A stretch of 32,000 bases of DNA from Caldimicrobium thiodismutans (GCF_001548275.1 NZ_AP014945.1:600001-632000), one strand, 5' to 3'; positions 5,735-23,926 are shown, counted from the first letter of the stretch. The notes: generated by a model not told the origin, from the letters alone. Translations and numbers: made by a program.

Positions 5735-6323
5735 ATGAGGAGATTTACTTATGTAGGGGCTGCGCTATGGGGATTTTTAGCAAGCATAACTCTGGTTAAA
5801 GGAGCCCTTTCAGAGGAAATTAAGGAAACAAAGGAACTTCCTGAGGTGGTTGTAAAAGGGGAGAAGCTTATTCTTCCTACTAAAGAGACTGGGGAGACGG
5901 TCTATACTGGTGTTGAGATTACCCGGGAGGGGATTGAACTTTCAGGAGAGCGAGGAAAAGGAAATGTTTGGGAGGCATTAAGTATCATTCCTGGGGTAAT
6001 TTTTGAGAGTGTTGATCCAGCCAATCTTTCCGCTGAGCAATCTAATGTAAGAATAAGAGGGGTCAGAGGATATCTCGGTGGTCTTACTGTGCAGGGAGTT
6101 CCCAATTATGGGGCAAATCCTATTGGGCCAAGGGCTTATCTATATGACCTTGAAAATTTTGAAAGTATCGCCCTTTATAAAGGAGCAGTTCCTGTTAATC
6201 TTGGGGCAGGAGTTGGAAACAGGGCAGGTCTTAATAAATGCCTTTGATGATAGTGTTGGGGAAACAAGTTATGGAGCTGGAGCTCCTTTTTCTGTAAAGG
6301 GGATTATAGAATTTAACTTTTAA
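5735..6323 (+). pseudogene. TonB-dependent receptor remnant: plug domain joined to the C-terminal beta-strand, barrel deleted, plus a frame change near 6230..6247
   Basis: ORF 5735..6247 (170 aa) has a signal peptide, ELPEVVVKGEK and plug-like VRIRGVRG...ESIALYKGAVPVNLGAG, then stops. The adjacent frame ends ...INAFDDSVGETSYGAGAPFSVKGIIEFNF, a typical TBDT C-terminus. Only ~590 nt are available before the next gene, against ~2000-2300 nt for an intact receptor. Confidence 0.7.
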
Positions 6324-6341
6324 ATAGGGAGGAGTTTTAAG

Positions 6342-7121: not shown

Positions 7122-7136
7122 ATTAGGGAGGAATCT

Positions 7137-8237: not shown

Positions 8238-9291
8238 GCCCACTCCTTTAAGCACTTTAAAAGAACTATATAAGAAAACTCTTTTTAAAAAAACCCTTTT
8301 TGGTATTTTCCTTCTCATTTTTCTTTTTTTAGCTGGATGTATCTCTTTATTAGTAGGAAGTGGAGTATTTAATCCCTTTACTCTTTTCTTTTCCCAGGGG
8401 GAGTATTCAGGCCTTATTTTTAAGTTAAGAATGGTAAGAATTGGTTCAGCCATAGTTGCCGGAGCAAGCCTTGGGCTAACAGGGGCAATTATGCAGACTG
8501 TTCTTCGCAATCCCTTAGCTTCACCTTTTACTCTTGGGATCTCCCACGGAGCAGCTTTTGGGGCCTCCTTTGCCATAATTGTCCTTGGAGCAGGAAAATT
8601 TCACGCCTCCATTACTGCAGGCCTCAGTATCTCCTCCTATTTCCTGGTAGTCCTTTTTGCCTTTCTTTTTGCCTTTCTTGGAACCCTCCTTATTCTTTTT
8701 CTCTCCTTTGTTAGGAATCTTAAACCTGAAGCCATTATTCTCTCTGGAGTTGCCTTAGGAAGCCTTTTTACCTCAGCAACCATGATACTTCAATACTTTG
8801 GTGAAGACTTTCAGGTTGCAGCAACTCTCTTCTGGACCTTTGGAGATCTTGGAAAAGCTGGCTTACAGGAGTTAAAAATTATGGGATTTTTCTTCTTAAT
8901 TCTCTTTCCCTTTTGCCTTTTTCTCAGTTGGAAATTGAATGCCCTTCTCTGGGGAGATGAGATAGCTCAAAGCTTAGGAATTGAAGTAAAAAAGTTGCGT
9001 TTAATCAGTCTTTTGATTTCTGCTTTTTTGGTTTCGGTATGCACATCCTTTCTCGGGATAATAGGCTTTATAGGATTAATTTCTCCTCATATAGTGAGAC
9101 TTCTTATTGGGAATGATCATCGCTTTCTCCTTCCTTATTCTGCCTTAACAGGAGCTCTACTTCTTACCCTTTCTGATCTCCTTTCTCGCATAATTCTCTC
9201 TCCCCATACACTTCCTGTTGGAGTCATTACCACCTTCCTTGGAGCACCTCTTTTCTTTATCCTTTTGATAAGAAAAAACCGGAGCTTTTGA
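8164..9291 (+). CDS. FecCD/BtuC-family ABC importer permease
   Basis: Motifs RNPLASPFTLGISHGAAFGA and PVGVITTFLGAPLFFILL, with about 9-10 TM segments. The start is uncertain. The track gives 8146; I prefer ATG 8164, preceded by GAAAGGA at good spacing. Either start overlaps the binding-protein gene by 74-92 nt. Confidence 0.85.
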   Translation: MKSLKETIQALNSSNLKEEASFLTEPTPLSTLKELYKKTLFKKTLFGIFLLIFLFLAGCISLLVGSGVFNPFTLFFSQGEYSGLIFKLRMVRIGSAIVAGASLGLTGAIMQTVLRNPLASPFTLGISHGAAFGASFAIIVLGAGKFHASITAGLSISSYFLVVLFAFLFAFLGTLLILFLSFVRNLKPEAIILSGVALGSLFTSATMILQYFGEDFQVAATLFWTFGDLGKAGLQELKIMGFFFLILFPFCLFLSWKLNALLWGDEIAQSLGIEVKKLRLISLLISAFLVSVCTSFLGIIGFIGLISPHIVRLLIGNDHRFLLPYSALTGALLLTLSDLLSRIILSPHTLPVGVITTFLGAPLFFILLIRKNRSF

Positions 9292-9295
9292 AGAA

Positions 9296-10051
9296 GTGAT
9301 AGAGGTTAAAAATTTAAGGGTTTTTTTGAAAAAAAGGGAGATTCTTAAGAATTTAAGTTGTTTCTTTCAGAATAACAGGCTCTATGCCCTTCTTGGACCA
9401 AATGGTGCAGGAAAAACTACTTTTTTAAAAACCCTTTGCGGAATTCAATCCTACAGAGAGGGCGAAATTCTAATTATGGGAAGGTCCCTGAAAACCCTTT
9501 CTTCCACAGAGCGAGCAAAAATTATGGCTTACCTTCCTCAAAGACTAAATCTACCTCCCAATTTCTCTGTGTTTGAATCAATTCTTCTTGGAAGGATACC
9601 CCACTTCTTCTTTGAACCCAAAGAGGAGGATTTAAATAAAGTTGAAGAAGTTATAGAGCTTTTAAACATTAATGATTTTGTAAAAAGAAGTGTTAGAGAA
9701 CTTAGCGGAGGAGAATTTCAAAAGGTCTTAATTGGAAGAGCCCTTGCCCAGGAACCCAAAATCCTCCTTCTTGACGAACCAGTAAATCATTTAGATCCAA
9801 AAAATCAAATAGAAATCATGGAACTATTACAAAAAATAATATCTATTAAAAATATACTTGTTATAATGGTGCTTCACGATCTCAATCTTGCTTTAAGATT
9901 TGCTGATAATTTTCTTTTCCTTAAAGATGGAAAACTCCTTTATGAAGGGGACAGTGAATCTATTGATGAAAACTTATTAAGGGAGACCTTTGAAATCTCG
10001 GGTATCTTTCTTCATATTGAAAATAGGAAATTCTTTCTTATAGCCCCTTAA
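9296..10051 (+). CDS. ABC importer ATPase (FecE/BtuD-like)
   Basis: Walker A GPNGAGKTT, signature LSGGEFQ, Walker B ILLLDEP and H-loop VLHD. GTG start, N-terminus MIEVKNLRV. Confidence 0.85.
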   Translation: MIEVKNLRVFLKKREILKNLSCFFQNNRLYALLGPNGAGKTTFLKTLCGIQSYREGEILIMGRSLKTLSSTERAKIMAYLPQRLNLPPNFSVFESILLGRIPHFFFEPKEEDLNKVEEVIELLNINDFVKRSVRELSGGEFQKVLIGRALAQEPKILLLDEPVNHLDPKNQIEIMELLQKIISIKNILVIMVLHDLNLALRFADNFLFLKDGKLLYEGDSESIDENLLRETFEISGIFLHIENRKFFLIAP

Positions 10052-10119: not shown

Positions 10120-10266
10120 ATGCCAGAGAGAAGTAAAGACTGGTTAAATCAAGCTTTAAAAGATTTGGAGCATGCTAAGCTCTCCTTAGAGCATAAAAAT
10201 TATGAATGGGCCTGTTTTGCATCCCATCAAGAAGTAATTGCAAAAGAAACCCTTTGGGTGATATAG
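10120..10266 (+). pseudogene. Truncated HEPN-domain (toxin-antitoxin type) gene remnant, 48 codons
   Basis: Below the ORF-track length cutoff. My translation: MPERSKDWLNQALKDLEHAKLSLEHKNYEWACFASHQEVIAKETLWVI*. It matches the N-terminal helices of HEPN proteins (..DWL.QA..DL..A...L....YEWACF...Q). The C-terminal Rx4-6H region is missing. An alternative ATG lies at 10108. Confidence 0.5.
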
Positions 10267-10291: not shown

Positions 10292-10350
10292 CTTGTGAAA
10301 AAAATTTCAAATGCTATTCATTTTAAAATCGTAGCATTAATTTTTATTAA
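10292..10350 (+). promoter_or_regulatory. Conserved 59-nt promoter/operator element, copy B (upstream of the intact TBDT operon)
   Basis: 53/59 identical to 5651..5709. It has TTGTGA (10293..10298) and dyad TGAAA-N4-TTTCA (10296..10309), and ends 35 nt before ATG 10386. Confidence 0.55.
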
Positions 10351-10385
10351 TCTTCAAAAAATAATATCAAAGGTGGGAGGGGAGT

Positions 10386-12689
10386 ATGAAAAAGGGATAT
10401 CTTATAAGTTTTGCAGTTTTAGGATCAATAGCAAATTTGATAGTTGCAGGGCATGGATTTTCTGAGGAGGTTAAGAAAGAGGAAGTAAAGAAGGCTGAAG
10501 AACTGCCTGAGGTTGTGGTTACTGCAACAAGAACAGAAATCCCTGTTGAGGCCTCTCCTGCAAGTGTGAATGTAGTAACCAAGGAGAAAATAGAATTAAA
10601 AAAGCCAAAGACTATTGATGAGGCCTTAAATGATATTTCTGGGGTGATGATAAGGAGAGGAAAGGGTCTTATGGATACCTTAGCTTCCATTCAACTTAGA
10701 GGGTTTGGGGAACAAAAACGCTCTCTTATCTTGTTAGATGGGATCCCCTTAAATAATGCCTATACAGGAGGAGTTAAGTTAGGTGGTTTTTTCCCGGAGG
10801 ATTTAGAAAGGGTTGAGGTAGTAAAAGGGCCCTTTTCTTCTCTCTGGGGTGGCTATGCTATGGGAGGGGTTGTTAATTTTCTTACTAAAATGCCTGAAAA
10901 AAGAGAAATTACCATTAAAGCTGGATATGGCTCCTCCTTTGATAGAGGAGATGCTATGGATGATTTAAAAAGGGTATATGTAAGTTATGGAGATAAAATG
11001 GGAAAATTTAGCTTCTTTTTAAGTTATGGAAGGCATGATACCAACGGATATCCTACAGATTTTAATATTAGACCAGGGGGAGAATATAAAAGTATTGACC
11101 CGCCACCGAATTATCTTTCTGGATGGCGTATAACTCAAGATAGATATGGTAATCTTCAGTATTTAATTGGGGACAAAGGTGATAATAGATGGTGGGATGA
11201 TGGTATAACTATCAAGGCTCAATATGAGTTTGATAAAAATACAAGACTTAGGCTAACTTATCTTAGAAATCGCTATGAATATAATTATGATGAACCTCAT
11301 ACTTATTTAAGAGATGCTTCCGGAAATCTAGTTTTTAATGATGACACATGGAAATATACCACCATTGATAATAGAAAATTTAAGATGGTTTCTGAATATA
11401 CTTATCTTCCTGGCGCAGGTGGAAGGGTTCAGAACATCTGGGGTGCCCTTTTTGAAACAGAATTATTCAAAAAACTTAAAACCAAGTTAAATCTCTCTTA
11501 CACAACTGCTGAAAAGGATTGGTATGTATCTGTAGGAGGTGGCGCAAGGATTGAAGGGTGCCCTCCTGGAACTGCTCCTGAACAGTGTGGTTATGTCACT
11601 AATACTCCTCAAAAAGCCTTTCAGGGAGACCTTCAGTTTAGTGTGCCAATTTTTAATAATCAAATTCTTACCTTTGGTTCTGCTTATAGATGGGAGTATG
11701 CAGACACTAAAGAGAAATACTTAAAAAACTGGAAGGATGAAACCTCAACAGTAAAACTTAAGTATCAATCCAAAGGAAAAACAAGAACCTGGTCAGTTTT
11801 TGCTCAAGATGAAATTATGTTAACAGAAAAAATAACTGCCTATCTTGGGGTAAGATATGATAACTGGAAGACCTATGATGGTTATGTGAATCAAGTTGGA
11901 ACGCCAGGTTATCCCAAGGAGTATCCTTCAAACACTGAAGAGTCCTTCTCTCCAAAGGTTTCTCTTGTTTATAAGCCCTTTGAAGGAACCCTTTTAAGAG
12001 GGTCCATAGGAAAGGCCTTTAGACCTCCAACAGTTTATGAACTTTATAGAACCTGGACTACCTCAAGGGGTATCACCTATGCGGGAAATCCAAATCTTAA
12101 GCCTGAAACTACAACTTCCTATGAACTTGGAATAGAGCAAAAACTCTGGAAGGGTGCCAAATTAAGTTTTACCTATTTTTATAATGATATGGAAGACCTT
12201 ATTTACAGAAAAACAGTTAATGCAACTTATCAGGAATTAATCAATGTTGGGTCTGCAATGTCACAGGGATTTGAAGCAGGCCTTGAACAGAAATTTGATT
12301 TTGGATTAAGGCTCTTTGTCAATCTTACTTATACAGACTCAGAAATTAAAGAAAACAAAGTAAAACCTCAAACTGAAGGGAAAAGGCTTACTTATCTCCC
12401 CCTTTGGATGGGAAATATTGGTGCTGAGTTTAAAAGAGGTAAATGGTCTTTCTATGTAGTGGGAAGGTATAGAGATAAATGGTATATGGATGACGAAAAT
12501 AAAGACAAAAAATCAAGGGTTTATGGCTCTTATGATGAATACTTTGTAGTTGATGTAAGAGCAAGTTATCAGGTAAATAAATGGATAAATTTCTCTATTT
12601 CAGGAGATAATATTTTTGATAGAGATTATTATTATTACTACAAAGCACCAGGTGCATCATGGTTTGCAGAACTTACTTTAAAATTCTAA
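10386..12689 (+). CDS. TonB-dependent outer-membrane receptor (intact, 767 aa)
   Basis: Signal peptide, TonB-box-like ELPEVVVTATR and plug motif VEVVKGPFSSLWGGYAMGGVVNFLTK. Barrel motifs GNPNLKPETTTSYELG are present, and the C-terminus is WFAELTLKF. Confidence 0.92.
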   Translation: MKKGYLISFAVLGSIANLIVAGHGFSEEVKKEEVKKAEELPEVVVTATRTEIPVEASPASVNVVTKEKIELKKPKTIDEALNDISGVMIRRGKGLMDTLASIQLRGFGEQKRSLILLDGIPLNNAYTGGVKLGGFFPEDLERVEVVKGPFSSLWGGYAMGGVVNFLTKMPEKREITIKAGYGSSFDRGDAMDDLKRVYVSYGDKMGKFSFFLSYGRHDTNGYPTDFNIRPGGEYKSIDPPPNYLSGWRITQDRYGNLQYLIGDKGDNRWWDDGITIKAQYEFDKNTRLRLTYLRNRYEYNYDEPHTYLRDASGNLVFNDDTWKYTTIDNRKFKMVSEYTYLPGAGGRVQNIWGALFETELFKKLKTKLNLSYTTAEKDWYVSVGGGARIEGCPPGTAPEQCGYVTNTPQKAFQGDLQFSVPIFNNQILTFGSAYRWEYADTKEKYLKNWKDETSTVKLKYQSKGKTRTWSVFAQDEIMLTEKITAYLGVRYDNWKTYDGYVNQVGTPGYPKEYPSNTEESFSPKVSLVYKPFEGTLLRGSIGKAFRPPTVYELYRTWTTSRGITYAGNPNLKPETTTSYELGIEQKLWKGAKLSFTYFYNDMEDLIYRKTVNATYQELINVGSAMSQGFEAGLEQKFDFGLRLFVNLTYTDSEIKENKVKPQTEGKRLTYLPLWMGNIGAEFKRGKWSFYVVGRYRDKWYMDDENKDKKSRVYGSYDEYFVVDVRASYQVNKWINFSISGDNIFDRDYYYYYKAPGASWFAELTLKF

Positions 12690-13657
12690 TTTTAATTATA
12701 TTTATATTTTGCTTAACTGAAGAAGGTTTTGCTAAAACCTTAAGTGTTACTGATGTTCTTGGGAGGAAAGTAACTGTTAAAGTTCCTGTTAAAAGGGCAG
12801 TTATAGCTATAACTCCTGAGCTTATTCCAGCTCTTGATATTTGGGATCAGGTTGCAGGAGTTTCAGACTGGGCAGAAAAAAGTTGTAGTGTTTATCAGGC
12901 CTTTGTCTTTAGTGGTTTAAAGGTAAGAAAGCCAACTGTTGGAACAGGGTCAAATTTAAATATAGAGGCCATTTTGAAATTAAATCCTGATGTGGTTATT
13001 ACCTGGAGTTACAACACAAAGGTTATAGAGTTTCTTGAATCAAAAGGTGTAAAGGTTATAGCTATCTGGCCCGAAAGTATTGGCGAGCTTTATGAAGTTA
13101 TTAGACTTCATGGGAAGCTCTTTGGAAAGGAAAATCAGGCAGAAAGGGTAATAGCTGAAATGGAGAAAATGCTAAACTTTATAAGTGAAAGAGCTAAACA
13201 AATTCAGACTAATAAGAGAAAGAAAGTTCTCCATCTTGGAGGAAAGCCCACAACTGTTTCTGGGAGAATCGGGATTACCAATGATGTTATAAAACTAATT
13301 GGGGGGATAAATGTAGGAGCCGAAATTCCCTCCAGAAATGCAGATGTCTCAGTTGAGAGGATTATTAATTGGAACCCGGATATAATTTTTATTTGGGGGT
13401 CTGCTGGCTATGATGAAACTTGGATTTATAACAATTCTCAGTGGAAATTTATAAAGGCGGTAAGAGAAAGAAAGGTTTACAAGCTTCCTCATTGGTCAAC
13501 CTGGTCTCCAAGGCTTGCACCCATTGTTCTTTATATGGCAATAAAGACCTATCCTGAAGTTTTTGGTGATGTGAATTTTGAAAAAATGGTTGATGAATTC
13601 TACCAAAAGGTCTTTGGCCTTTCCTTTAAAGAGGTAAGAAAATATGAAAAGTTATAG
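12659..13657 (+). CDS. Periplasmic substrate-binding protein, BtuF/FecB-like
   Basis: Signal peptide (FKILILIIFIFCLTEEGFA). VKRAVIAITPELIPALDIWDQVAGVS and KLNPDVVITW are typical. It overlaps the receptor's 3' end by 31 nt. The start is not independently supported by a strong RBS. Confidence 0.8.
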   Translation: MVCRTYFKILILIIFIFCLTEEGFAKTLSVTDVLGRKVTVKVPVKRAVIAITPELIPALDIWDQVAGVSDWAEKSCSVYQAFVFSGLKVRKPTVGTGSNLNIEAILKLNPDVVITWSYNTKVIEFLESKGVKVIAIWPESIGELYEVIRLHGKLFGKENQAERVIAEMEKMLNFISERAKQIQTNKRKKVLHLGGKPTTVSGRIGITNDVIKLIGGINVGAEIPSRNADVSVERIINWNPDIIFIWGSAGYDETWIYNNSQWKFIKAVRERKVYKLPHWSTWSPRLAPIVLYMAIKTYPEVFGDVNFEKMVDEFYQKVFGLSFKEVRKYEKL

Positions 13658-14645
13658 AGGATTAGTGATTGCTATTTCTCCTATTTTAGTAGGGTGGGTG
13701 GCGTTATTTTTAGGAGCCTATCACATAAGTCCTTTTTTTGTTTTAAAAATTCTTGTCAATGAAATTTTACATATTTATAAAGTTGGAGATATTCCAGAAA
13801 AAACTATTGTCTGGGATATAAGACTTCCAAGGGTTATTATGGCCTTTTTTGTTGGGGCAAGTCTTTCTTCTGCAGGAGTAACCTTACAGGCTATTTTTAG
13901 AAATCCCCTTGTTGACCCCTTTATTCTTGGGATTTCAGCAGGAGCTGCCTTTGGATGTGCCATAACTATAGGTTTTTTAGAAATATTTCCTATTCAGTTT
14001 ATGGCTTTTGTCTTTGCTCTTTTAGCTGTTCTTCTTGCTTATTTTGTTGCAAGGACTCAGGGTGAGATAAGTAGACTTCCCCTTGTTCTTTCTGGAGTTA
14101 TAGTTTCAGCCTTTTTCCAAGCTCTTGTTTCAATTGTTAAATTTATTGTTGATCCTCATAGACTTCAAAGTATTGTTTACTGGCTTATGGGAAGTTTTAG
14201 CCTTTCAGACTGGCAAACTGTGAAATGGGTTCTCCCTGGAATTATTCTTGGAATCTTTCCCCTTTTACTTATGCGCTGGAGGTTAAATGTGCTAAGTATG
14301 GGAGAGGAAGAGGCTAAAATGCTCGGTATCAATGTAGCAAGAGAAAGAGCTCTCTTTATTGTTTTTTCAGCCTTAGCAGTTGCAATAGCCACATCTGCTT
14401 GCGGAATAATTGGCTGGGTTGGGCTTATGGTTCCCCATCTTATAAGAATGATAGTAGGGCCAGACCACAAAGTGCTTTTACCACTTAGTCTGTGTGGAGG
14501 AGGAGCCTTTATGATTGCTGCAGATACTCTCTCAAGAACTATTACAAATTTTGATATTCCTGTAGGAATTATTACGGCTTTAACGGGTGCTCCCTTTTTT
14601 ATCTATCTTATGAAAAGAGGTGGGAAAGAAGCTTGGGGAAAATAA
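13644..14645 (+). CDS. FecCD/BtuC-family ABC importer permease
   Basis: Motifs RNPLVDPFILGISAGAAFG and IPVGIITALTGAPFFIYLM. A GAGGTAAG RBS precedes it, and it overlaps the upstream gene by 14 nt. Confidence 0.88.
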   Translation: MKSYRGLVIAISPILVGWVALFLGAYHISPFFVLKILVNEILHIYKVGDIPEKTIVWDIRLPRVIMAFFVGASLSSAGVTLQAIFRNPLVDPFILGISAGAAFGCAITIGFLEIFPIQFMAFVFALLAVLLAYFVARTQGEISRLPLVLSGVIVSAFFQALVSIVKFIVDPHRLQSIVYWLMGSFSLSDWQTVKWVLPGIILGIFPLLLMRWRLNVLSMGEEEAKMLGINVARERALFIVFSALAVAIATSACGIIGWVGLMVPHLIRMIVGPDHKVLLPLSLCGGGAFMIAADTLSRTITNFDIPVGIITALTGAPFFIYLMKRGGKEAWGK

Positions 14646-14646
14646 A

Positions 14647-15423
14647 ATGCTTGAAGTAAAAAATTTAACCTTTAAACATAAGGGTGAAAATCGGGAAATC
14701 TTAAGGGAGATTATCTTTACTGCAAGCCCTAAGGAAATTATTACTATACTGGGACCTAATGGGGCTGGGAAATCAACCCTTTTTAAATGTATTTCTGGAA
14801 TATGGAATGATTATGAGGGAGAAATTAGATTTCAGGGAGAGAGAGTAGATAAGTTTTCCTTTGAGAGGAGAGCTAAATTTTTTGCCATAGTTCCTCAAGA
14901 GCATGAGCCACCTTTTTCCTATTCAGTATTAGATGTGGTTCTTACAGGAAGAGCAAGTTATATAGGACTTTTTTCAAGCCCAAAAAGGGAGGATTATGAA
15001 AAGGCAGAGGAGGCTTTAGAGCTTGTGGGAATTAAACATCTGAAAGATAAAGCTTATACTAAAATTAGCGGTGGAGAGAGACAGCTTACTCTCATTGCCA
15101 GAGCTCTTGTTCAAGAGGCACCCGTTCTTCTTCTGGATGAACCCACAAGTCACTTAGACTTTAGAAATCAAGTCATAGTTCTAAACACAGTAAAAAAACT
15201 CGCTAAAGAAAAGAATCTCACAGTTATAATGACCCTCCATGATCCCAATCTTGCAAGCCTTTTTTCTGATAAAATTGTAGTTTTAAAAAAAGGAAAAGTA
15301 TTTCACAATGGATGCCCTTCAGAAGTAATTAAAAAAGAAATACTTGAAAAAGTTTATGAAATACCAATAGAAACTTTAAATAATGAAAAATTAACTTTTG
15401 TATATCCAAATTTAGAAATATAA
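14647..15423 (+). CDS. ABC importer ATPase (FecE/BtuD-like)
   Basis: Walker A GPNGAGKST, signature ISGGERQ, Walker B LLLDEP and H-loop TLHD. I prefer ATG 14647 (MLEVKNLTF, with GGGGA upstream) to the track's 14620 start. Confidence 0.88.
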   Translation: MLEVKNLTFKHKGENREILREIIFTASPKEIITILGPNGAGKSTLFKCISGIWNDYEGEIRFQGERVDKFSFERRAKFFAIVPQEHEPPFSYSVLDVVLTGRASYIGLFSSPKREDYEKAEEALELVGIKHLKDKAYTKISGGERQLTLIARALVQEAPVLLLDEPTSHLDFRNQVIVLNTVKKLAKEKNLTVIMTLHDPNLASLFSDKIVVLKKGKVFHNGCPSEVIKKEILEKVYEIPIETLNNEKLTFVYPNLEI

Positions 15424-15447
15424 CATAAAAATGTGGGGGACTAAAAA

Positions 15448-17844
15448 ATGAAAATCATTGTTATTACTTGGCAATCTTATTATAACATGTTTTATAAGAT
15501 ATCTAAAAAAATTAAAGATTTGAATATAAAAGTTTACTCTGCACGAGTTCTTGAAAAAGAAGGTGAAAAATTAAAAGCAGTTTTAAATGAGATTAAGAGT
15601 AGTGATCTTTTATTAGTTTATAGATCTACTCAAGAAAGCTTTTGGGAAATCTTAGAAAAAGAAATAAGAGAGGGAAAAATAGGTAAAAAAATTGTCTATC
15701 TCTCAAGTGATCCTTCATTTTGGACCTATTCCACCGTAAATCCCGAAATATTGATTAAGGCTCAAGAGTATATTTTGAGAAATGGAGAGGAAAATATAGA
15801 AAACCTCTTTTACTTTCTTGCAAAGGAGGTGTTATGGCTTCCTGTAGAATATCGAGAACCTGAAGAAATACCCTGGGAAGGAATTTATCATCCTAAGGCA
15901 GAAAGAATTTTCAAAGACATAAAGGATTATTTTTCCTGGTATAAACCCAAAAAAGCTCCAACTATTGGAATTCTTTTTTCAAGACATTATTGGATAAACG
16001 ATAACTTAGAAGTAGAGAATTTACTTATTTCAGAACTTGAAGCCAAGGGTTTTAATGTAATTCCTATTTTTGCTTACTCTATTAAGGATAAATCTCTTGG
16101 AACAAGGGGAACAGGAGAGATTATTGAGGAATGGTTAATAGATGAAGAGGGAAATTCAAGAATTGATCTCCTCATAAAGCTTATTTTCTTTTTCATTCAG
16201 AGCAGTAGAGAGGTAGGTTTTGAAAAAAAGGAAGTGGCTGAGAGGGGGGTTGAGCTTTTAAAAAGACTTAATGTGCCTGTTTTAGCACCAGTTATTTCTT
16301 ATTATAAAACCATAGAAGAGTGGGAAAAAGAGGAGTTAAATCTTGATATAGGATGGGCAATAGCAATGCCTGAGTTTGAAGGGGTTATAGAGCCTATAAT
16401 TATTGCTGGTCAGGTTGAAGGAGAGGCAGATGAAAGAAGGCGCATGCCTATTCCAGAAAGAGTTAAAAAACTTGTAGAAAGAATTGAGAGATGGATTGAG
16501 TTAAAGAGGACCCCTCCCAAAGAGAGAAGGATAGCTTTTATTCTTCATAATAATCCCTGTGCTTCTGTTGAGGCAACAGTTGGTTCAGCAGCTCATCTTG
16601 ATAGCCTTGAGTCGGTAGTTCAAATTATGAAAAGGATGAAAGAAGTAGGTTACGAAGTTTACCCGCCTGAGAGCGGTAAAGCTCTTATTGAGGAAATTAT
16701 GAATAAAAAAGCCCTTTCTGAGTTTCGCTGGACAACTGTTGAAGAAATTGTTAGCAAAGGAGGAGCACTTGCTTTAGTTGAGGTAGAAGAGTATTTAGAA
16801 TGGTTTGAAGAGCTTCCAGAAAAAACAAGGGAAAGGATGATTTTAGCCTGGGGGAATCCTCCTGGGGAATACAAAAATGGAATACCACCTGCCATGGTTT
16901 ATGAAGGAAAAATTGTGATCACAGGGGTAAAATTCGGAAATGTGGTAGTTTGTGTTCAGCCAAAAAGGGGATGTGCAGGACCAAGATGTGATGGTCAGGT
17001 CTGTAAAATACTTCACGATCCAGATGTGCCTCCCCCTCATCAGTATATAGCAACCTATAAGTGGCTTTCAAGAAAATTTAAAGCCCATGCTATAGTCCAT
17101 GTGGGAACCCATGGGAATTTAGAATTTTTACCTGGAAAGGGAGTTGCTTTAAGTTCAGCCTGTTTTCCTGATATAGGAATAGACACAGTGCCTCACCTTT
17201 ATATTTATAATGCTGATAACCCTCCTGAAGGAACCATTGCTAAAAGAAGATCCTGTGCGGTGCTTGTAGATCACATGCAAACTGTTCTTACTGAATCAGG
17301 CCTTTATGAAGAACTTGAGGAACTTGATAGACTCCTTGGAGAATATGAAAGTGCAAAAAGAAAGGATCCTGCTTTAAAACACACTCTTGAACACCAGATT
17401 TTGGAGGCAGTTAAAAAAGCAAAATTGGATGTTTCTACAAAAGTGTTTTATAAAGGTAAGAAAAAAGCACTTTCTGAGCTTTCTCCTGAGGAAACCCATG
17501 AAATTTCTTTTGAAGAAATTGTATCTGCTTTGCATTCTCAGCTTTCTTTAATAAGGAATACTCAAATACAGGACGGTATGCATATTTTTGGAAAACTGCC
17601 AGAAGGGAAAAGAAGGGTTGAGTTTATCTATTCCATTTTAAGATACGATCCAGGAGAAGAAATAAGTTTAAGAAAGGAAATTGCTAAACTTTTAGGATAC
17701 GATTTAAAAGAACTTCTCTCTTATAAGGAAAAAGTTGATGAAAGGACAGGGAAAAGTTTTGGTGCTCTTTTAGAGGAAATAGATAGACTCGGGAAAGAGG
17801 TTGTAGCAGAGATTTTAAAGCAGGAGGGAATAGCCTATGAATAA
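15448..17844 (+). CDS. cobN: CobN/ChlH-type class I chelatase large subunit, N-terminal two-thirds (798 aa)
   Basis: CobN-family motifs IVHVGTHGNLEFLPGKGVALS, YIYNADNPPEGTIAKRR and IQDGMHIFG. No signal peptide. It ends at TAA 17842..17844, inside the next ORF's start region. Confidence 0.85.
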   Translation: MKIIVITWQSYYNMFYKISKKIKDLNIKVYSARVLEKEGEKLKAVLNEIKSSDLLLVYRSTQESFWEILEKEIREGKIGKKIVYLSSDPSFWTYSTVNPEILIKAQEYILRNGEENIENLFYFLAKEVLWLPVEYREPEEIPWEGIYHPKAERIFKDIKDYFSWYKPKKAPTIGILFSRHYWINDNLEVENLLISELEAKGFNVIPIFAYSIKDKSLGTRGTGEIIEEWLIDEEGNSRIDLLIKLIFFFIQSSREVGFEKKEVAERGVELLKRLNVPVLAPVISYYKTIEEWEKEELNLDIGWAIAMPEFEGVIEPIIIAGQVEGEADERRRMPIPERVKKLVERIERWIELKRTPPKERRIAFILHNNPCASVEATVGSAAHLDSLESVVQIMKRMKEVGYEVYPPESGKALIEEIMNKKALSEFRWTTVEEIVSKGGALALVEVEEYLEWFEELPEKTRERMILAWGNPPGEYKNGIPPAMVYEGKIVITGVKFGNVVVCVQPKRGCAGPRCDGQVCKILHDPDVPPPHQYIATYKWLSRKFKAHAIVHVGTHGNLEFLPGKGVALSSACFPDIGIDTVPHLYIYNADNPPEGTIAKRRSCAVLVDHMQTVLTESGLYEELEELDRLLGEYESAKRKDPALKHTLEHQILEAVKKAKLDVSTKVFYKGKKKALSELSPEETHEISFEEIVSALHSQLSLIRNTQIQDGMHIFGKLPEGKRRVEFIYSILRYDPGEEISLRKEIAKLLGYDLKELLSYKEKVDERTGKSFGALLEEIDRLGKEVVAEILKQEGIAYE

Positions 17845-19315
17845 AGAGGAAAAATTAAAAAGCATAAATTGGGAAGAGCCCCATTGGAGAGCTATAAGGG
17901 AAAAAGTTTTAGATTTAAATAAGAGAATTGAGGAATCAAGGGAGATTGAGGCCTTATTGAAAGGGTTTGATGGGGGTTATATTCCAGCAGGGCCTTCGGG
18001 ACTTATAACCAGAGGAAGGGATGATGTATTACCGACAGGTAGAAATTTTTATAGTCTTGATCCCCATAGAGTTCCAACTAAGTCAGCCTTTGAGGTTGGG
18101 AAAAGGCTTGCTGAAAAACTTATAGAAAAACATCTTCAAGAAGAAGGAAGGTATCCTGAAAATGTGGCTATTTTCTGGATGGCAAATGATATAATGTGGG
18201 CTGATGGTGAGGGAATGGGACAGATTCTTTGGCTTTTTGGAGTAAAACCAAAGTGGCTTTCAAACGGAAGGGTAAAGGGTTTTGAGATTATTTCTTTAGA
18301 CGAGCTTAAAAGACCAAGAATTGATGTAACCATAAGGGTTTCAGGAATAACAAGAGATAATTTCCCCATGTGTATAGAATTAATAGATGAAGCTCTACAA
18401 GCTGTAGCAAGTTTAGATGAACCTGAAGAGATGAATTTTGTTAAAAAACATGCGTTAGAAATTCTTAAAACTAATGGTGGAGATTTTAGGTCAGCAACTT
18501 TGAGGATTTTCTGTTCCATGCCAGGGGTCTATCAGGCTGGAACTCAGCTTGCAGTTTATGCCTCAGCCTGGAAGACAGAAAAGGACCTTGCAGAAGTTTT
18601 TCTTTATTGGAATGGCTATGCTTATGGAAAAGGTATCTGGGGTGAGGCAAAACACAAAGAGTTTGCCAATATTTTAAAAACCGTGGATATTACCTATAAC
18701 AAGGTGGTATCTGACGAATATGATCTTTTCGGATGCTGCTGCTATTTTGGGACCCATGGAGGAATGACCTCTGCCGCAAGATATCTATCTGGAAAAGAAG
18801 TAAAAACCTATTATGGAGATACAAGAGACCCTGATCATGTTGAGGTGAGAGATCTGGCAGAAGAATTAAGGAGAGTGGTGAGGACGAAACTTTTAAACCC
18901 TAAATGGATAGAAGGAATGAAAAGACATGGATATAAGGGAGCTGGAGACATTTCTAAAAGAGTGGGAAGGATTTATGGCTGGTCAGCAACAACCAAAGAG
19001 GTGGATTCCTGGATCTTTGATGATATTGCAAGAACCTTTCTTATGAATGAAGAAAATAGGAACTTTTTTAAGGAAAATAATCCCTGGGCTCTTGAAGAGA
19101 TAGCAAGAAGACTTCTTGAGGCTTGGGAAAGAGGACTTTGGGATCCCGCTGAAGAGGTAAAGGAACACTTAAAGAAACTTTATCTTGAAATAGAGGGTTG
19201 GCTTGAAGAGGGAATGGGGGATTTAAAAGGGAATTTTCAAGGAGGTAGCATAGATATTATTACGGCTGAGGAGGTAGAGACTTGGAAAGAGAAGATGAAA
19301 AACCTTTTAGGGTAA
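17837..19315 (+). CDS. cobN: CobN/ChlH-type class I chelatase large subunit, C-terminal third (492 aa)
   Basis: [31 protein letters not shown] and the following sequence match the C-terminal CobN region. It has its own AGGAGG RBS 9 nt upstream of ATG 17837. 798+492 aa equals a normal single-chain CobN length. Confidence 0.85.
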
Positions 19316-20319
19316 TCTATCCCTTTACAGCCATTGTGGATCAGGAAGAACTTAAACTCGCTCTTATTTTAAATGTGATTGATCCTCTAATTGGCGGAGT
19401 TCTCATTATGGGAGAAAAGGGAACCGGGAAAAGCACTGTAGTTAGGGCTCTGGCTGATCTTCTTCCACCCCTTGAGGTAATTAATTGCCCTTTTCGATGC
19501 TCTCCCCATGGTCCTTACTGTGATCTCTGCAAGGAGAAACTTGAAAGGGGAGAACCCCTGGAAAAAATCAAGGTAAAAATGGAAATGGTTGAACTTCCCT
19601 TGGGTATTACTGAAGATCGCCTTCTTGGAAGCATTGATCTTGAATATGCCCTTATCACTGGAAAGAAAAAGTTTGAACCCGGCCTTCTTGCCAGAGCAAA
19701 CCAGAATTTTCTATATATTGATGAAGTTAACCTTCTTGAGGATCATATTGTAGATCTTCTTCTTGATTCAGCTGCTATGGGGATAAACCGGGTGGAAAGA
19801 GAGGGAATTTCCTTTACCCATCCTGCCCGTTTTGTGCTTGTGGGAACCATGAATCCTGAAGAGGGCGAACTTAGACCTCAATTTCTTGATCGCTTTGGCC
19901 TCTGTGTGGAGGTGCATGCCATAAAAGATAAAGAGCTTCGTAAAGAGATTCTAAAAAGGCGTCTTTCCTTTGATACAGACCCAGAAAGTTTCATAAATCT
20001 CTGGAGAAAGGAGCAGGAAAACCTTGCAAAAAAAATTTATCTTGCCAAGGAAAATCTGTCAAAGGTTAAAGTTCCTGAAGAGATCTATGAAAAGGTAGTT
20101 GAAATAACAACAGAGTTAAAACTTGATGGCCACAGAGGGGATCTCACCTGGATTAAGGCAAGTAGAGCCCTTGCATCCCTTGAGGGAAAGGAAAAGATTA
20201 CCAAGGAAGAACTCAAAAGGACAGGACTTATGGTTTTAAGGCACCGACTTAAAAGACTTCCCTTTGAAGACATAGAAAGGGAAAAGGAGAGACTCTATGA
20301 ACTTTTGGAAAGACTTTGA
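19282..20319 (+). CDS. chlI: ChlI/BchI-type AAA+ chelatase motor subunit
   Basis: [16 protein letters not shown], Walker [10 protein letters not shown], Walker [16 protein letters not shown] and [24 protein letters not shown] start with a GAGGAGG RBS. It overlaps cobN-C by 34 nt. Confidence 0.88.
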
Positions 20320-22135
20320 AGAGACCTTTTTTCCAGAAATAAAGGGAAATCTGAGTGTAAAACTTGCCTTAGTGCTTAATCTCATTGATCCAAATTGTAG
20401 CGGAGCACTAATTCTTGGAGAGTCTGGCACAGGAAAATCAAAACTTCTTATAAACTTTTACAAAATGGCCAAGGCCTTAAGTTTACCCTGTGAATATCTT
20501 CCCCTGGGGGTGAGTGAAGAAAATCTTCTTGGAGGCCTTGATCTTGAAAGAACCTTAGAAAAAGGAGAAATTATCAACTTTGAAGGGATTTTATCTAAGG
20601 TTAAAGGGGGATATTTACTTGTAGATGACCTTTATCTTCTCTCTGAATCCCTTCTATCTATTATTTTTAGTAAGATCCATACTTTTACCCTTATTGCTAC
20701 CCATAATCCCCTTGAGGGTGAGATAAACCCCCATTACCTTGAAAAAATAGGACTTATTGCCTTTACTGAGGCCTTTGGAAATAGAGCGCTTCGCAAGGAT
20801 CTACTGAAAGAAAAATTTAATTTAAATGATGAGAAAGAGCCCTCTCAAAGGGCCCTAAGAAAAATAATTCTGGTAAGAAATCTTTTAAAAAGGGTAAAGA
20901 TCCCTGAGTCTATGTGGGAAAAGGCAGTAAATCTTGCCTTAAAAGAAGGGGCTCTATCCCACCGAAGTGAAATCATCCTTCTTCTCTCTGCAAGAGCCTT
21001 TACAGCTTTAAAAAATGAAGAGTCCATAAAAGAGGAGTATCTCTCCTTCCTAGCACCCTTAGTCTTCACCCATAGAAAAAAATTAAAAGAAGAAAAACCT
21101 GTAGAACCTAAACAAAGGGATATAGAGAGCAAAGGAGAAAAAAAAGAGGAGTCTCAAAGAAGAGAAATTAAGCCTGAAGAGAGCCCTAAGGATGAAAAAG
21201 TGGGAAATTTCAATTTTTCAATGGATACAAAAGGTAAGGTAAGTGAAGAAAAAGGAGAAGAAGAAAGGGAAAATCTTCAAAAGCCATCTTCTTCTAAGGA
21301 AGAAGTTTTCCCAATAATTATGCCTCAAGGGGTTTCTGAATTTCTTCTCAAGGGCAAAAAGGTGGGTTCCCATGGGAAAAGGCTTTTGGGAAAGAGCCAA
21401 TCATCATCCTTTCGCAAAATAGGAATAAAATTCCAGGGTGAAAGAAGGGAAATTGACCTTTACGAGACTCTCAAAGCAAGCCTTCCCTATCAAAAAGTCA
21501 GAGGCTTTAATGGAAAAATAATCATTAAGAAAGAGGATTTAAGATTTTCAAAAAGAGAGGGAAAGGGAAGGACTCTTCTTTTGCTTGTTGTAGATGGTTC
21601 TGGTTCTATGGGAGTTCATCAGCGAATGAAATATGTAAAGGGAGTTATTTTTCATTTTCTTAAGTCTTCTTACAGGAGGCGAGATAGAGTGGCTATCATA
21701 GTTTTTAGAAAATTTGGAGCCGAGCTTCTTGTTCCACCCAGTAATTCCCTTGAGTTTGCCTATAGAGTCCTTAAGGACCTTCCAGTAGGAGGAAATACTC
21801 CCCTTTCTGCAGGGCTTGAACTTGCAAAGAAAACGATAAAAATTTATAAGTCTTCCCATCCCCAAGATCATATCTTGCTTCTTCTTTTTACAGATGGCAA
21901 AGCCAATATCCCCATTAAGCCAAAGGGGGACCCCTGGAAAGAGATAAAAATTTTATCTGAAGAAATTGCAAAAATTAAGGGAATTACGGGTATTGTTATT
22001 GATACAGAAAAGGAAAGAGAGCTTATCCGTTTTGAACTTGCAAAAGACCTTGCTAAAATGCTAAGAGCTCACTACTTTAAGATGGAAAATTTAAGTGAAA
22101 CCACTTTAGTAAAAATTTTAAGAATTGCCAATTAA
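20297..22135 (+). CDS. chlD: ChlD/BchD-type chelatase subunit (AAA+-like N-domain, charged linker, C-terminal vWA domain)
   Basis: N-terminal GESGTGKS, a Lys/Glu-rich linker, and a vWA MIDAS motif [12 protein letters not shown]...[10 protein letters not shown]...[10 protein letters not shown]. It overlaps chlI by 23 nt. Confidence 0.85.
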
Positions 22136-22202
22136 AAGGAGATCAAAAGGCAAGGGCTTTTTGCCAAACCAACTCATTGGGAGTTAAGGGAGGAGAAAGG
22201 CT

Positions 22203-22631
22203 ATGGAGAGTTTGAAATATGTAATTGACTATGGAATTATTGGGGTTCTTCTTTTTATGAGTGTTATTTCCTTTGCCCTTTTTCTTGAAAGAAGAAGCAC
22301 CTTTAAAAAAATAAAACTTGAAAAATTTAGACATAAAAAAGAGCTTGAGATGGAACTTACCAAGGGACTTTATGTGATAGCAACCGTGGGATCAAATGCT
22401 CCTTATGTGGGGCTTCTTGGAACGGTGCTTGGAATTATGCTTACTTTTTATCAGATAGGAGAAACTGGTCTTGCCGATACTGCAAAGATTATGCAGGGCC
22501 TTGCTTTAGCCTTAAAGGCCACAGCCGTTGGCCTAATGGTTGCTATTCCAAATATTGTAATGTATAACTACCTTCTGCGAAAGGTAAAGGAAATCCTCTC
22601 CTCCTTTGAAATTAAGCAAGGTGAGGAATAA
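22203..22631 (+). CDS. exbB: ExbB/TolQ proton channel
   Basis: 142 aa with 3 TM segments and APYVGLLGTVLGIMLTF...ALALKATAVGLMVAIP. GGGAGGAG RBS. Confidence 0.88.
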   Translation: MESLKYVIDYGIIGVLLFMSVISFALFLERRSTFKKIKLEKFRHKKELEMELTKGLYVIATVGSNAPYVGLLGTVLGIMLTFYQIGETGLADTAKIMQGLALALKATAVGLMVAIPNIVMYNYLLRKVKEILSSFEIKQGEE

Positions 22632-22633
22632 AA

Positions 22634-23014
22634 ATGGAAGAAAAAGAATTTGATAACATTAATGTAATCCCCCTTGTGGATATTATGCTGGTTTTGTTAA
22701 CCATTGTGCTTGTTACCGCAACTTTTATCTCCATTAAAGCCCTACCTCTAAAACTTCCGGAAACAAAATATACCAAAGAGCTTCCCCAAAAAAGAGCTAT
22801 AGAATTAACAGCCACAAAGGATGGGAAAATAATCTATGAAGATAAAGAGATCACTTTAAAGGACCTTGAAATGCTTCTTAGCTCCCTATCAGAAGAAACT
22901 CCCATAGTGATAAATATTGATAGGGATTCTGCAGTTCAAAATCTTGTTAATCTTTTAGACTTGTTAAAAAAATACCACCTAAGTAGGATATCTATAAAAA
23001 CCATTCAAAAGTGA
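22634..23014 (+). CDS. exbD: ExbD/TolR
   Basis: INVIPLVDIMLVLLTIVLV with the conserved TM Asp, plus a periplasmic domain. It starts 2 nt after exbB. Confidence 0.88.
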   Translation: MEEKEFDNINVIPLVDIMLVLLTIVLVTATFISIKALPLKLPETKYTKELPQKRAIELTATKDGKIIYEDKEITLKDLEMLLSSLSEETPIVINIDRDSAVQNLVNLLDLLKKYHLSRISIKTIQK

Positions 23015-23015
23015 G

Positions 23016-23810
23016 ATGCTTTCTTTCAGAGCTTTAAGCCTATCTTCGCTTTTGCATTTTCTTTTCCTTTTGGGCTCTTATTTTCTTTTTTTGGGGCTCT
23101 ATCAAGCACCCTCAAAGGAGATTCTTGAGATCGATCTTTCTGAGATGCATTTTCAAGAAATAAAAGATGAGAATACTTCTTTTGAGTCTCAAGCAAAGCA
23201 CTCTACATTAAAGTCTATATCAAAGGCAACTCCAAAGAAGGAGGAAAAAACTGAAAAAATAGAGCAAACTCCCAAAGTTTTAGATCCAGATCAAGGGAAG
23301 GTGATTTTAAAAGAGGAGGTCAAGGAGAAGATTTCCCATGAAGACTCACCGGATCAGGTTAAAAATGTGGCTTTTCATGGTTCAGCTCTTTCACAGGTTT
23401 CAGCTCAGAGCTTTAAGGAGGTTTCTTCTGTTGAGAAAGGGGGAATAGGCCATGGCTCAAAAGATGGGGAAACCAGGGTTACAAAAATCTCCCATGGAGA
23501 GGAGGGGGGCTCTAAATATGACAGAGAAAAGCAATATCTTTCCCAGAAATTACATATTATTTCAGAGCTTCTCAGAAAGCATCTTGAGTATCCCTATCTT
23601 GCAAGGCGTATGGGCTGGCAGGGGGATCTGGTGTTAAGCTTTGTGCTCACTCCCTCTGGTGAGATTAAAGAGATTAAAATTCAGAAATCCACAGGATTTG
23701 ATGTGCTTGACAGAGCTGCCAAAGAAACCCTGCTTAAGGTCTCAAAATATTTCCCGAGACCAGAGGTTGAAGTAAGAATAAAAGTTCCTATAAGTTTTAA
23801 GTTAAATTGA
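23016..23810 (+). CDS. tonB: TonB-family energy transducer
   Basis: N-terminal TM anchor, a charged Lys/Glu linker and a C-terminal TonB domain YPYLARRMGWQGDLVLSFVLTPSGEIKEIKIQKSTGFDVLDRAAKETL...VPISFKL. Confidence 0.85.
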   Translation: MLSFRALSLSSLLHFLFLLGSYFLFLGLYQAPSKEILEIDLSEMHFQEIKDENTSFESQAKHSTLKSISKATPKKEEKTEKIEQTPKVLDPDQGKVILKEEVKEKISHEDSPDQVKNVAFHGSALSQVSAQSFKEVSSVEKGGIGHGSKDGETRVTKISHGEEGGSKYDREKQYLSQKLHIISELLRKHLEYPYLARRMGWQGDLVLSFVLTPSGEIKEIKIQKSTGFDVLDRAAKETLLKVSKYFPRPEVEVRIKVPISFKLN

Positions 23811-23821
23811 GTTTACAGATA

Positions 23822-23913
23822 CGGAGGGGGCGGGATTCGAACCCGCGGTACGAGGTTTTGCCCCGTACATGCGATTTCCAGTCGCACCCCTTCGTCCGCT
23901 CGGGCACCCCTCC
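23822..23913 (-). tRNA. tRNA-Ser (anticodon GGA), type II with long variable arm, CCA not encoded
   Basis: Reverse complement: GGAGGGG-TG-CCCGAGCGGACGAAGGGG-TGCGA-CTGGAAA-TCGCA-T-GTACGGGGCAAAACCTCGTAC-C-GCGGG-TTCGAAT-CCCGC-CCCCTCC-G. It has a 7-bp acceptor stem, a 5-bp anticodon stem, loop CU-GGA-AA, an 8-bp variable arm (one G-U pair), a T-loop TTCGAAT and discriminator G. Confidence 0.9.
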
Positions 23914-23926
23914 AGAATACTTGAAA

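Follow-up and report, generated by a model that had tools for sequence, protein, structure and literature searches.

An operon of Caldimicrobium thiodismutans that links a TonB-dependent importer to a two-chain, cysteine-rich CobN-ChlI-ChlD chelatase: a possible route for cobalt-chelate uptake and metal insertion

A stretch of 32,000 nucleotides (nt) from Caldimicrobium thiodismutans (GCF_001548275.1, NZ_AP014945.1:600001-632000), a relative of hot-spring sulfate-reducers, was analysed as a whole and is called the window below. The study was centred on an operon on its plus strand (10386-23810), in which the genes of a TonB-dependent importer are followed by those of a chelatase of the CobN-ChlI-ChlD type and of an ExbB-ExbD-TonB transducer. 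Protein families were assigned by Pfam and NCBIfam profiles, and relatives of solved structure were ranked by sequence search of the PDB. Related loci were collected by a scan at one genome per species, which gave 433 loci encoding a relative, 80 of which were kept, and the proteins of the window were mapped onto the related loci. Protein matches likewise pointed to Caldimicrobium/Thermodesulfobacteriaceae as the source. The analysis of open reading frames (ORFs) and of both profile collections confirmed the eleven same-strand genes that a first-pass annotation of this DNA had described, with the same families and at the same place. The operon and its front are composed as follows.

10292-10337, plus strand: promoter-like TTGTGA with a dyad, candidate promoter and repressor operator of the operon
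10386-12689, plus strand: TonB-dependent outer-membrane receptor (Pfam Plug and barrel, signal peptide, TonB box ELPEVVVTATR)
12659-13657, plus strand: periplasmic class III substrate-binding protein of predicted NiuB/CeuE type (PF01497, Peripla_BP_2)
13644-14645, plus strand: FecCD-type permease of an ATP-binding cassette (ABC) importer (PF01032)
14620-15423, plus strand: ABC ATPase (PF00005)
15448-17844, plus strand: CobN N-terminal chain, domains I-IV, predicted cytoplasmic (PF02514, model positions 2-656)
17837-19315, plus strand: CobN C-terminal chain, domains V-VI (PF02514, model positions 676-1089)
19282-20319, plus strand: ChlI-type AAA+ motor subunit (Pfam Mg_chelatase and AAA_lid_2)
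20297-22135, plus strand: ChlD-type adaptor, its AAA-like N-domain joined by a charged linker to a vWA domain (Pfam VWA_2 and AAA_lid_2)
22203-22631, plus strand: short ExbB, group 2 (PF01618; TIGR02805, 154 bits against a cut-off of 135)
22634-23014, plus strand: ExbD (PF02472, 86 bits; TIGR02804, 83.5 bits, under its cut-off)
23016-23810, plus strand: TonB, membrane-anchored at its N-terminus and with TonB_C at its C-terminus (PF03544; TIGR01352 above its cut-off)

The genes are joined by overlaps of 8-34 nt or by gaps of 1-2 nt, as first described, with the exception of two longer gaps of 24 nt (between the ATPase and the N-terminal chain of CobN) and 67 nt (between ChlD and ExbB). Internal signals that could split the cluster were at chance level, as the promoter-like and terminator-like matches found within the operon by a consensus scan were no commoner than in shuffled sequence. 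The earlier view, in which one co-directional unit provides for an uptake route at each layer of the envelope and for a class I chelatase, is thus supported. The last three genes have the attributes of an energy transducer, with PF02472, PF03544 and TIGR02805 over their cut-offs and a TonB box on the receptor. The operon ends with tonB, the end of which is abutted by a convergent tRNA-Ser(GGA) gene (23821-23914, minus strand), followed by a GGDEF/EAL gene.

The closest solved homologue of the binding protein is NiuB/CeuE of Helicobacter pylori (4INO/4INP; E value 1e-44, 156 bits, residues 29-327). It is followed by two structural-genomics proteins of unassigned ligand and by MolA (85 bits), while BtuF reaches 45 bits and the heme binders give the weakest matches (ShuT 40, IsdE 33 and HutB 24 bits). 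The homology to NiuB extends over the full length and exceeds that to other class III binders, which is indicative of a protein of the NiuBDE/CeuE-FecDE type. It is also specific to this type of operon, the binding proteins of 26 loci scoring 119-152 bits and the CobN-adjacent ones of Firmicutes 40-63 bits. The permease is nearest to HI1471/MolB (217 bits), before FhuB (190), HmuU (178) and BtuC (138). A tetrapyrrole as the imported ligand, as first suggested, is not supported by these rankings, in which NiuB/CeuE is closer to the binding protein than BtuF and the heme binders by a wide margin. Structural work on NiuB/CeuE is said to show that B12, heme and enterobactin are not its ligands. 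As the binding protein is considered the main determinant of specificity, the importer would be a system for a small metal chelate. The ligand of NiuB itself is Ni(II)-(His)2, and both nickel and cobalt enter the cell through NiuBDE (PMC5140060).

The NCBIfam models of B12 uptake scored far below their cut-offs for the receptor and the binding protein (BtuB 158 and 114 bits against 600 and 836; BtuF 59 against 234), and the BtuC model also remained under its threshold (202 against 334). Among the models compared with the receptor, the hemin subfamily was the best (TonB-hemin TIGR01785) and BtuB far lower, but the score of 248 bits for the former is itself below the cut-off of 317. Similarly, the best model for the ATPase is that of heme ABC ATPases, with 224 bits and a cut-off of 261. 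The receptor contains an FRPP (544) and an NPNL (568) box. The possibility that such FRAP/NPNL boxes represent a heme signature was weighed and given up, as the boxes are generic and the diagnostic histidines are wanting.

The chelatase part has the features of class I chelatase genes, as judged from its motifs. The two CobN chains together carry the whole PF02514 domain, and the superfamily motif of domain III, defined as H(F/V)G(T/A)HG (PMC12583661), is found as HVGTHG at residues 551-556 of the N-terminal chain, with His555 equivalent to His-538 of HmuS. The Walker A (GEKGTGKST) and Walker B (LYIDEV) motifs of ChlI and the metal ion-dependent adhesion site (MIDAS) of ChlD (DGSGS, residues 433-437) are all intact, which speaks for an insertion driven by ATP, as known from Mg and Co chelatases. 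The best model for the CobN chains is NF004646 'CobN' (1033+886 bits, cut-off 1468), ahead of TIGR02257 (360+452 bits, cut-off 822). ChlI and ChlD scored 473+359 bits with TIGR02442 'putative cobaltochelatase' (cut-off 779), ChlI 435 bits with BchI (cut-off 467) and ChlD 292 bits with BchD. Among solved structures, the N-terminal chain matched ChlH with 249, CobN with 220 and HmuS with 180 bits; the CobN pair is about equally near to ChlH and CobN and clearly farther from HmuS. ChlI also contains, at residues 69-83, an insert with four cysteines resembling a small zinc ribbon or metal site.

The division of CobN into two polypeptides is genuine: the ATG of the C-terminal chain overlaps the stop codon of the N-terminal chain, and a strong Shine-Dalgarno sequence, AGGAGGGA, lies 7 nt before this ATG. 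CobN is split in 26 loci and fused in 46. In Thermodesulfovibrio sp. TK110 (L082:12373-13444; also L083) the two halves are separated by genes for a PIN toxin and an AF2212-like protein and by a small ORF of opposite orientation, and this toxin-antitoxin insertion indicates that the halves are expressed independently in that organism. According to the domain scheme I-VI supplied by the CobSTN structure (bioRxiv 10.64898/2026.07.21.739949), the cut falls between domains IV and V, and the two 'jaws' of the active site (domains III and V) are therefore on separate chains.

The second jaw differs from that of the characterised relatives, as residues C300-C301-C302 of the C-terminal chain occupy the place of their metal ligands. 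In alignments to 9UK9, 7C6O and ChlH, C301/C302 fall on D1100/D1101 of CobN and C302 on a histidine of ChlH, which we take to be H1174; by motif register, C302 also matches His-1209 of HmuS. The Cys-Cys-Cys motif is kept in 68 of the 70 motif-bearing ORFs (three of these read CCS); in paralogues encoded at the same loci it is replaced by DSDD or DCDD, the DSDD type being present in L039, L053 and L054. Cysteines specific to the clade were found in eight columns (N371, N502, N509, N514, N519, C179, C301 and C302). Judged by sequence, the split CobN belongs to a distinct cysteine-rich clade of class I large subunits, and the triad together with the six further clade-specific cysteines suggests metal handling by thiolates and/or an Fe-S cluster, suited to anoxic and sulfidic habitats. 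An Fe-S cluster has been reported for some BchH/CobN proteins. A cysteine-rich cobalt site also has a precedent in CobW, which acquires Co(II) via a CxCC motif (PMC7689651). Two hallmarks of the bona fide aerobic CobN are not found in the operon, the acidic 'DSDD' ligands (D1100 region) being replaced by CCC and the partners CobS/CobT by ChlI/ChlD.

On the basis of these homologies, we tentatively propose, as a good possibility rather than a likelihood, that a small chelate of cobalt, or possibly of nickel, is taken up by way of the operon and supplies an ATP-driven, cysteine-rich, two-chain chelatase of the cobalt type. The receptor, powered by the ExbB-ExbD-TonB proteins of the operon, would bring the chelate of a scarce divalent metal, most likely Co(II) and possibly Ni(II), across the outer membrane. 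The NiuB-like binding protein would then pass it to the MolB/NiuD-like permease and the ATPase for transfer to the cytoplasm. There, a soluble chelatase composed of both CobN chains, the ChlI hexameric motor and the ChlD adaptor may load the metal into a corrin or tetrapyrrole precursor that has none and is either made by the cell or salvaged. Its active site would be formed between domain III of the N-terminal chain, with His555 of HVGTHG, and domain V of the C-terminal chain, with Cys300-302, and the ATP-driven motor would thus work on a heterodimeric 'pair of pliers'.

The matches of the receptor and the ATPase to heme models bear on another scenario, contained in the first-pass annotation, in which heme or a metalloporphyrin is imported and its iron harvested by a cytoplasmic CobN-ChlID acting as a de-chelatase, i.e. 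in reverse. De-chelation of heme is proven for HmuS, a homologue of CobN (PMC12583661), a Hmu-like gene set is present in the same genomic island, and the ABC-2 exporters of 27 related loci could remove the emptied porphyrin. However, both heme-model scores are under their cut-offs, and the heme binders rank last among the matches of the binding protein. In heme receptors, histidine ligands sit in the plug and in the stretch from the FRAP to the NPNL box (PMC12094164), whereas the receptor of the operon has three histidines in all and none in the plug or between its two boxes. The N-terminal chain of CobN starts with MKIIVITWQSYYN and has no hydrophobic segment that could correspond to the membrane anchors of HmuS, there is no Met-rich stretch in either chain, and the HmuS motif LSLDHxxEFMGG with His-1209 is not in the split CobN, which has CCC there. 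HmuS moreover uses NADH and no ChlID (PMC12583661), whereas ChlI and ChlD are present here. The second CobN of the island is a better HmuS-like candidate, and the relatives of the operon are linked by riboswitches to B12 and not to iron. Extraction of iron from heme by a reversed chelatase is thus disfavoured and appears very unlikely.

Chelatase and transporter genes also occur together in relatives. About 15 loci, spread over Thermodesulfobacteriota, Desulfobacterota and Nitrospirota, share a succession that runs from the receptor through binding protein, permease and ATPase to CobN, ChlI and ChlD; Thermodesulfovibrio (L082) and Thermodesulforhabdus (L085) are among them, and all eleven genes are present in a Caldimicrobium contig (L081). 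As this core order is kept across phyla with unrelated flanks, the genes appear to travel as a block and to form one functional module. The flanks differ between the related loci and contain housekeeping genes, and no cbi or cob genes were found in those scanned. The opposite view, namely an ordinary cobalt chelatase of the B12 pathway that happens to lie beside an unrelated iron-chelate importer, could invoke the membership of all transporter parts in broad iron-complex families (FecCD, Peripla_BP_2 and TonB-dependent receptors). It is highly improbable in view of the overlaps or junctions of 1-24 nt that tie the transporter genes to CobN, of the recurrence of the order in different phyla without cbi/cob neighbours, and of the rearranged loci L025, L027, L048 and L055, in which the order is broken, yet the genes are still clustered.

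The ExbB-ExbD-TonB genes are not a fixed part of the module, as the first-pass annotation had implied by calling them dedicated, but an add-on. They follow ChlD only in L001, L017 and L081 and are found elsewhere in the cluster in L027 and L048; most other loci are without them, L055 having a partial ExbB-like match downstream only. Other genes recur in the cluster family: a pair of ABC-2 exporter genes, of which that for the membrane subunit occurs in 27 loci; a membrane protein with a 'Gate' domain, in 7 loci; a methyltransferase of BioC type that follows ChlD in 5 loci of Thermodesulfovibrio; and large Cu_amine_oxidN1 surface proteins, in 8 Firmicutes loci. Examples of such extra-gene stretches are L027:6548-8246, L055:8414-9990, L085:13905-14948, L082:17775-18524 and L084:15024-18882. 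The methyltransferase of Thermodesulfovibrio was considered as a BchM-like enzyme and set aside, as it is BioC-like, under the cut-off and uninformative.

At the front of the operon, TTGTGA (10294-10299) is followed by a perfect dyad, ATGCTA-N15-TAGCAT (10311-10337), which overlaps the likely -10 element. A near base-for-base copy (TTCTTGTGAAAAAA..CAAATGCTA-N15-TAGCAT) lies at 5653-5696, ahead of the neighbouring importer cluster, so that the dyad occurs twice in the window against 0.08 expected; it recurs in L001, and degraded versions are present in L081, L010 and L017. The front promoter of the first-pass annotation was not flagged by the sigma-70 consensus scan, the overall counts of which equal the expectation from shuffled sequence, but the duplicated and conserved TTGTGA with its dyad speaks for it. 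Because the promoter/operator is duplicated, the two importer clusters probably form one regulon, and a repressor binding at ATGCTA-N15-TAGCAT over the -10 element probably sets the expression of both. The wide spacing of the half-sites recalls what we take to be the layout of NikR sites, which is to be seen as a lead only. The term 'self-contained', first applied to the operon, does not fully hold, since the promoter/operator also serves the cluster at 5735-10051 and the larger island holds CbiZ and a second, HmuS-like CobN set.

No riboswitch, the cobalamin type included, was found in the window with Rfam, at gathering or permissive E-value thresholds, or in the seven closest orthologous loci. 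The lack of a cobalamin riboswitch in the leader had been noted before, and the conclusion drawn from it, that this is not a standard B12 (BtuB/BtuFCD) uptake operon, is strengthened by the low scores of the BtuB and BtuF models. Of 39 related loci scanned, 36 are without any cobalamin riboswitch. In L041 the riboswitch lies downstream of the CobN array, whereas those of L053 (652-851) and L062 (987-1181) head long same-strand arrays comprising ChlI/ChlD, an ABC-2 exporter, a CCC-type CobN and an ABC importer, with a DSDD-type CobN also in L053.

A different leader, absent from the window, was found in relatives. It is promoter-proximal, includes an intrinsic terminator and lies directly 5' of the first importer or CobN-unit gene. 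Its 5' arm carries a conserved CA(U/A/G)GAAGGC(C/U), it corresponds to no Rfam family, and in Thermodesulfovibrio it is extended by small hairpins whose loops read A(U/C)GAA. Its sites are as follows.

L002:1834-1905
L003:833-904 and 4589-4660
L012:4788
L015:1169
L016:247
L019:171
L022:8109
L025:1949
L037:478 and 6211
L041:8651
L078:1544
L082:4871
L085:4806

As a riboswitch, the CA(U/A/G)GAAGGCC leader was rejected, because it largely coincides with the A-tract and the 5' arm of the intrinsic terminator. In view of this overlap it is treated only as a possible attenuator, part of its conservation being due to the terminator architecture.

The remaining features of the island lie upstream of the operon.

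From near 1006 and running off the window edge, minus strand: second CobN-like gene with a hydrophobic signal/anchor N-terminus, MSLKNSLFLSLILFFLCSSFLFA
990-1343, minus strand: DUF2149 gene, preceding the second CobN-like gene
1340-1906, minus strand: MotA/ExbB gene, likewise preceding it
1903-2604, minus strand: DUF2162 gene, likewise preceding it
4738-5559: CbiZ (Pfam), 5 kb upstream of the operon
5735-6247, plus strand: plug-only remnant of a TonB-dependent receptor (signal peptide, TonB box and plug; barrel gone, the next gene starting at 6342)
6342-7121, plus strand: P-loop protein of the MinD/ParA/CbiA family
7137-8237, plus strand: TM0189-like binding protein (PDB 2ETV, 283 bits)
8146-9291, plus strand: FecCD permease (Pfam)
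9296-10051, plus strand: ATPase of the upstream importer cluster (Pfam)
10120-10266, plus strand: remnant of a HEPN-domain gene, 48 codons (Pfam positions 2-33 of 117)

The same order of two clusters is found in Thermodesulfovibrio L082, where both are preceded by the same intrinsic-terminator leader and a full receptor of 744 residues takes the place of the plug-only remnant. The P-loop protein, which is also present in L082, L011, L013, L018 and L066, could be a metal-handling NTPase, as it has weak matches to Mrp/ApbC-type carriers, and the HEPN remnant, which lies in the space separating the importer clusters, probably goes back to a toxin-antitoxin insertion that has decayed. The second CobN set (1-2604, minus strand) resembles HmuS/HmuU/HmuV. 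Its orthologue in L081 scores 351 bits with HmuS and 353 with ChlH, compared to 364 and 546 for the split CobN, and the 335-residue N-terminus of the second CobN-like gene gave no match in the PDB sequence search. Both CobN systems are paired also in L081, L001 and Ammonifex (L084). Another receptor gene (2728-4715, plus strand) is frameshifted near 4215-4227, the first frame stopping at 4227 and the C-terminal barrel (...YLGVRAKF) continuing in another frame to 4715; it is either a pseudogene or the result of an assembly error. On the other side of the operon, selA (selenocysteine synthase; 28660-30054, plus strand) lies 5 kb downstream of tonB.

The presence of CbiZ in the window, the riboswitch-led CobN arrays of the distant relatives L053 and L062 and operon-2 of Dehalobacter restrictus keep a link to B12 and cobalt alive. 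Operon-2 of this corrinoid auxotroph combines Fep/Btu-like ABC transporters, two CbiZ, CobN and Mg-chelatase subunits under riboswitch control, and it is induced 346-fold by corrinoid starvation (PMC4285132). These observations are also consistent with corrinoid salvage, in which the importer would take up incomplete, metal-free or wrongly metallated corrinoids and CobN-ChlID would insert cobalt. The same idea has been voiced for Chlorobaculum tepidum, namely that cobalt is put into an imported corrinoid, with chelatase genes next to a TonB receptor, as quoted in PMC8620254, and the second FecCD-type importer under the same promoter/operator would fit it. Nevertheless, BtuF and BtuC are among the solved relatives that the binding protein and the permease resemble least, the BtuB and BtuF models are far below their cut-offs, CbiZ lies near CobN in 0 of 85 related loci, and the riboswitch is lacking from the window and the seven closest orthologous loci. 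Corrinoid salvage is thus a serious candidate, albeit an unlikely one.

The arrangement as such is not new, given the clusters of Dehalobacter, Chlorobium and Novosphingobium aromaticivorans. In Dehalobacter and in Chlorobium/Chlorobaculum, CobN and Mg-chelatase-type subunits lie beside FecCD-type transporters, in Dehalobacter also beside CbiZ, and a part in supplying corrinoid or cobalt has been proposed for them (PMC4285132, PMC8620254). No own ExbB-ExbD-TonB, split CobN or Cys triad is described for these clusters, and the Dehalobacter operon differs further by its cobalamin-riboswitch control. In N. aromaticivorans, a TonB-dependent receptor, a cobalt transporter and a cobaltochelatase form a cluster (PMC7689651). 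The closest model for the importer is Helicobacter NiuBDE (CeuE/FecDE) with the FrpB4/NikH receptors and TonB, which likewise combines a TonB-powered receptor, a class III binder and a FecCD-type importer, but its genes are scattered, serve urease and hydrogenase, are controlled by NikR and have no chelatase attached. In H. mustelae, according to a title cited in PMC3856676, CeuE/FecDE and a dedicated TonB serve for Ni and Co.

The chelatase shares the PF02514 subunit with HxGTHG, the AAA+ motor and the vWA/MIDAS adaptor with CobN-CobS-CobT and ChlH-ChlI-ChlD, but its large subunit consists of two polypeptides and has CCC instead of Asp-Asp (CobN) or His (ChlH), the clade-specific cysteines numbering nine. 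It differs from CobNST in its partners, ChlI/ChlD, and its host lineage is a non-phototrophic strict anaerobe. The Hmu system of Bacteroidota (HmuY-R-S-T-U-V) also couples a TonB-dependent receptor to a protein of the CobN superfamily (PMC12583661, PMC12094164). HmuS, however, is anchored in the membrane, depends on NADH, contains an insert rich in Met as well as LSLDHxxEFMGG, needs no ChlID and has MotA/ExbB-like and DUF2149 partners (PMC12583661). In the window, partners of this type go with the other CobN-like gene (1-2604, minus strand) and not with the split CobN. The PA1921-PA1925 operon of Pseudomonas aeruginosa (TonB-dependent receptor, CobN-like protein, ExbD and a hypothetical protein) joins a receptor, a CobN-superfamily protein and its own energy-transducing parts in one metal-starvation operon (PMC4542158), but it has no ABC importer and no ChlI/ChlD, is zinc-regulated and stands nearer to the second CobN set of the window.

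The Pseudomonas genes are also relevant to the nature of the metal, as PA1922-1925 (receptor, CobN-like protein and ExbD) are Zur-regulated and more than 100-fold up-regulated on zinc starvation (PMC4542158). NiuB is primarily a nickel protein (PMC5140060), and a Cys3 + His site, as deduced from the alignment, would by general coordination chemistry suit Ni or Zn. The operon might thus import Ni(II) or Zn(II) for a Ni or Zn chelatase, or strip the metal from an imported chelate in an ATP-driven manner. This appears quite unlikely, as no Ni or Zn tetrapyrrole is known from these bacteria, the riboswitch links of the relatives point to B12, and the CobN-like protein of Pseudomonas, as also the second CobN of the window, is of the kind associated with ExbD/MotA and not with ChlID.

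Several points weigh against the import of a cobalt or nickel chelate for the split-CobN chelatase. Hidden Markov models place the receptor and the ATPase closest to families of heme uptake, though under the cut-offs, and an identity of about 30% does not fix ligand specificity among class III binding proteins. Cobalt uptake and B12 genes are usually under riboswitch control, yet the window and 36 of the 39 loci scanned are without a cobalamin riboswitch. Strict anaerobes normally insert cobalt early with CbiK/CbiX, which leaves the macrocycle of a CobN-type enzyme unexplained; a small CbiX gene adjoins the cluster in L082, and Chlorobium has cbiK in addition to a CobN-BchI/D cluster beside transport genes (PMC8620254). 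Finally, the ABC-2 exporters, 'Gate' proteins and large surface proteins of the relatives are not explained by a model of metal import.

A broader view, which goes beyond the import of a cobalt chelate and which we consider somewhat doubtful, is that the Cys-triad two-chain CobN with ChlI/ChlD represents a third functional clade of class I chelatases, namely an oxygen-sensitive, thiolate- and/or Fe-S-dependent Co (or Ni) chelatase of strict anaerobes. It might act outside the classical early insertion, in late insertion or in the repair of metal-free corrinoids, with its own envelope-spanning import line for Co or Ni chelates that would be co-regulated with the second importer via one operator.

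The role of CobN/ChlI/ChlD in strict anaerobes has been a standing question since the first comparative B12 studies, as CbiK/CbiX-type chelatases are already present in these organisms, and a survey of the superfamily in 2025 called most such CobN sequences unannotatable (PMC12583661). The operon of C. thiodismutans offers a compact and conserved unit to approach this question, with a candidate class of Co/Ni-chelate ligands, a CCC signature, a natural split of the active site and a candidate operator. If the importer carried corrinoids or heme instead, the operon would represent a new salvage or de-metallation route. If the import of a cobalt or nickel chelate is correct, the operon would be a means by which anaerobes in sulfidic settings secure cobalt for a corrinoid-hungry Wood-Ljungdahl lifestyle, and the chemistry known for ATP-driven chelatases would be widened.

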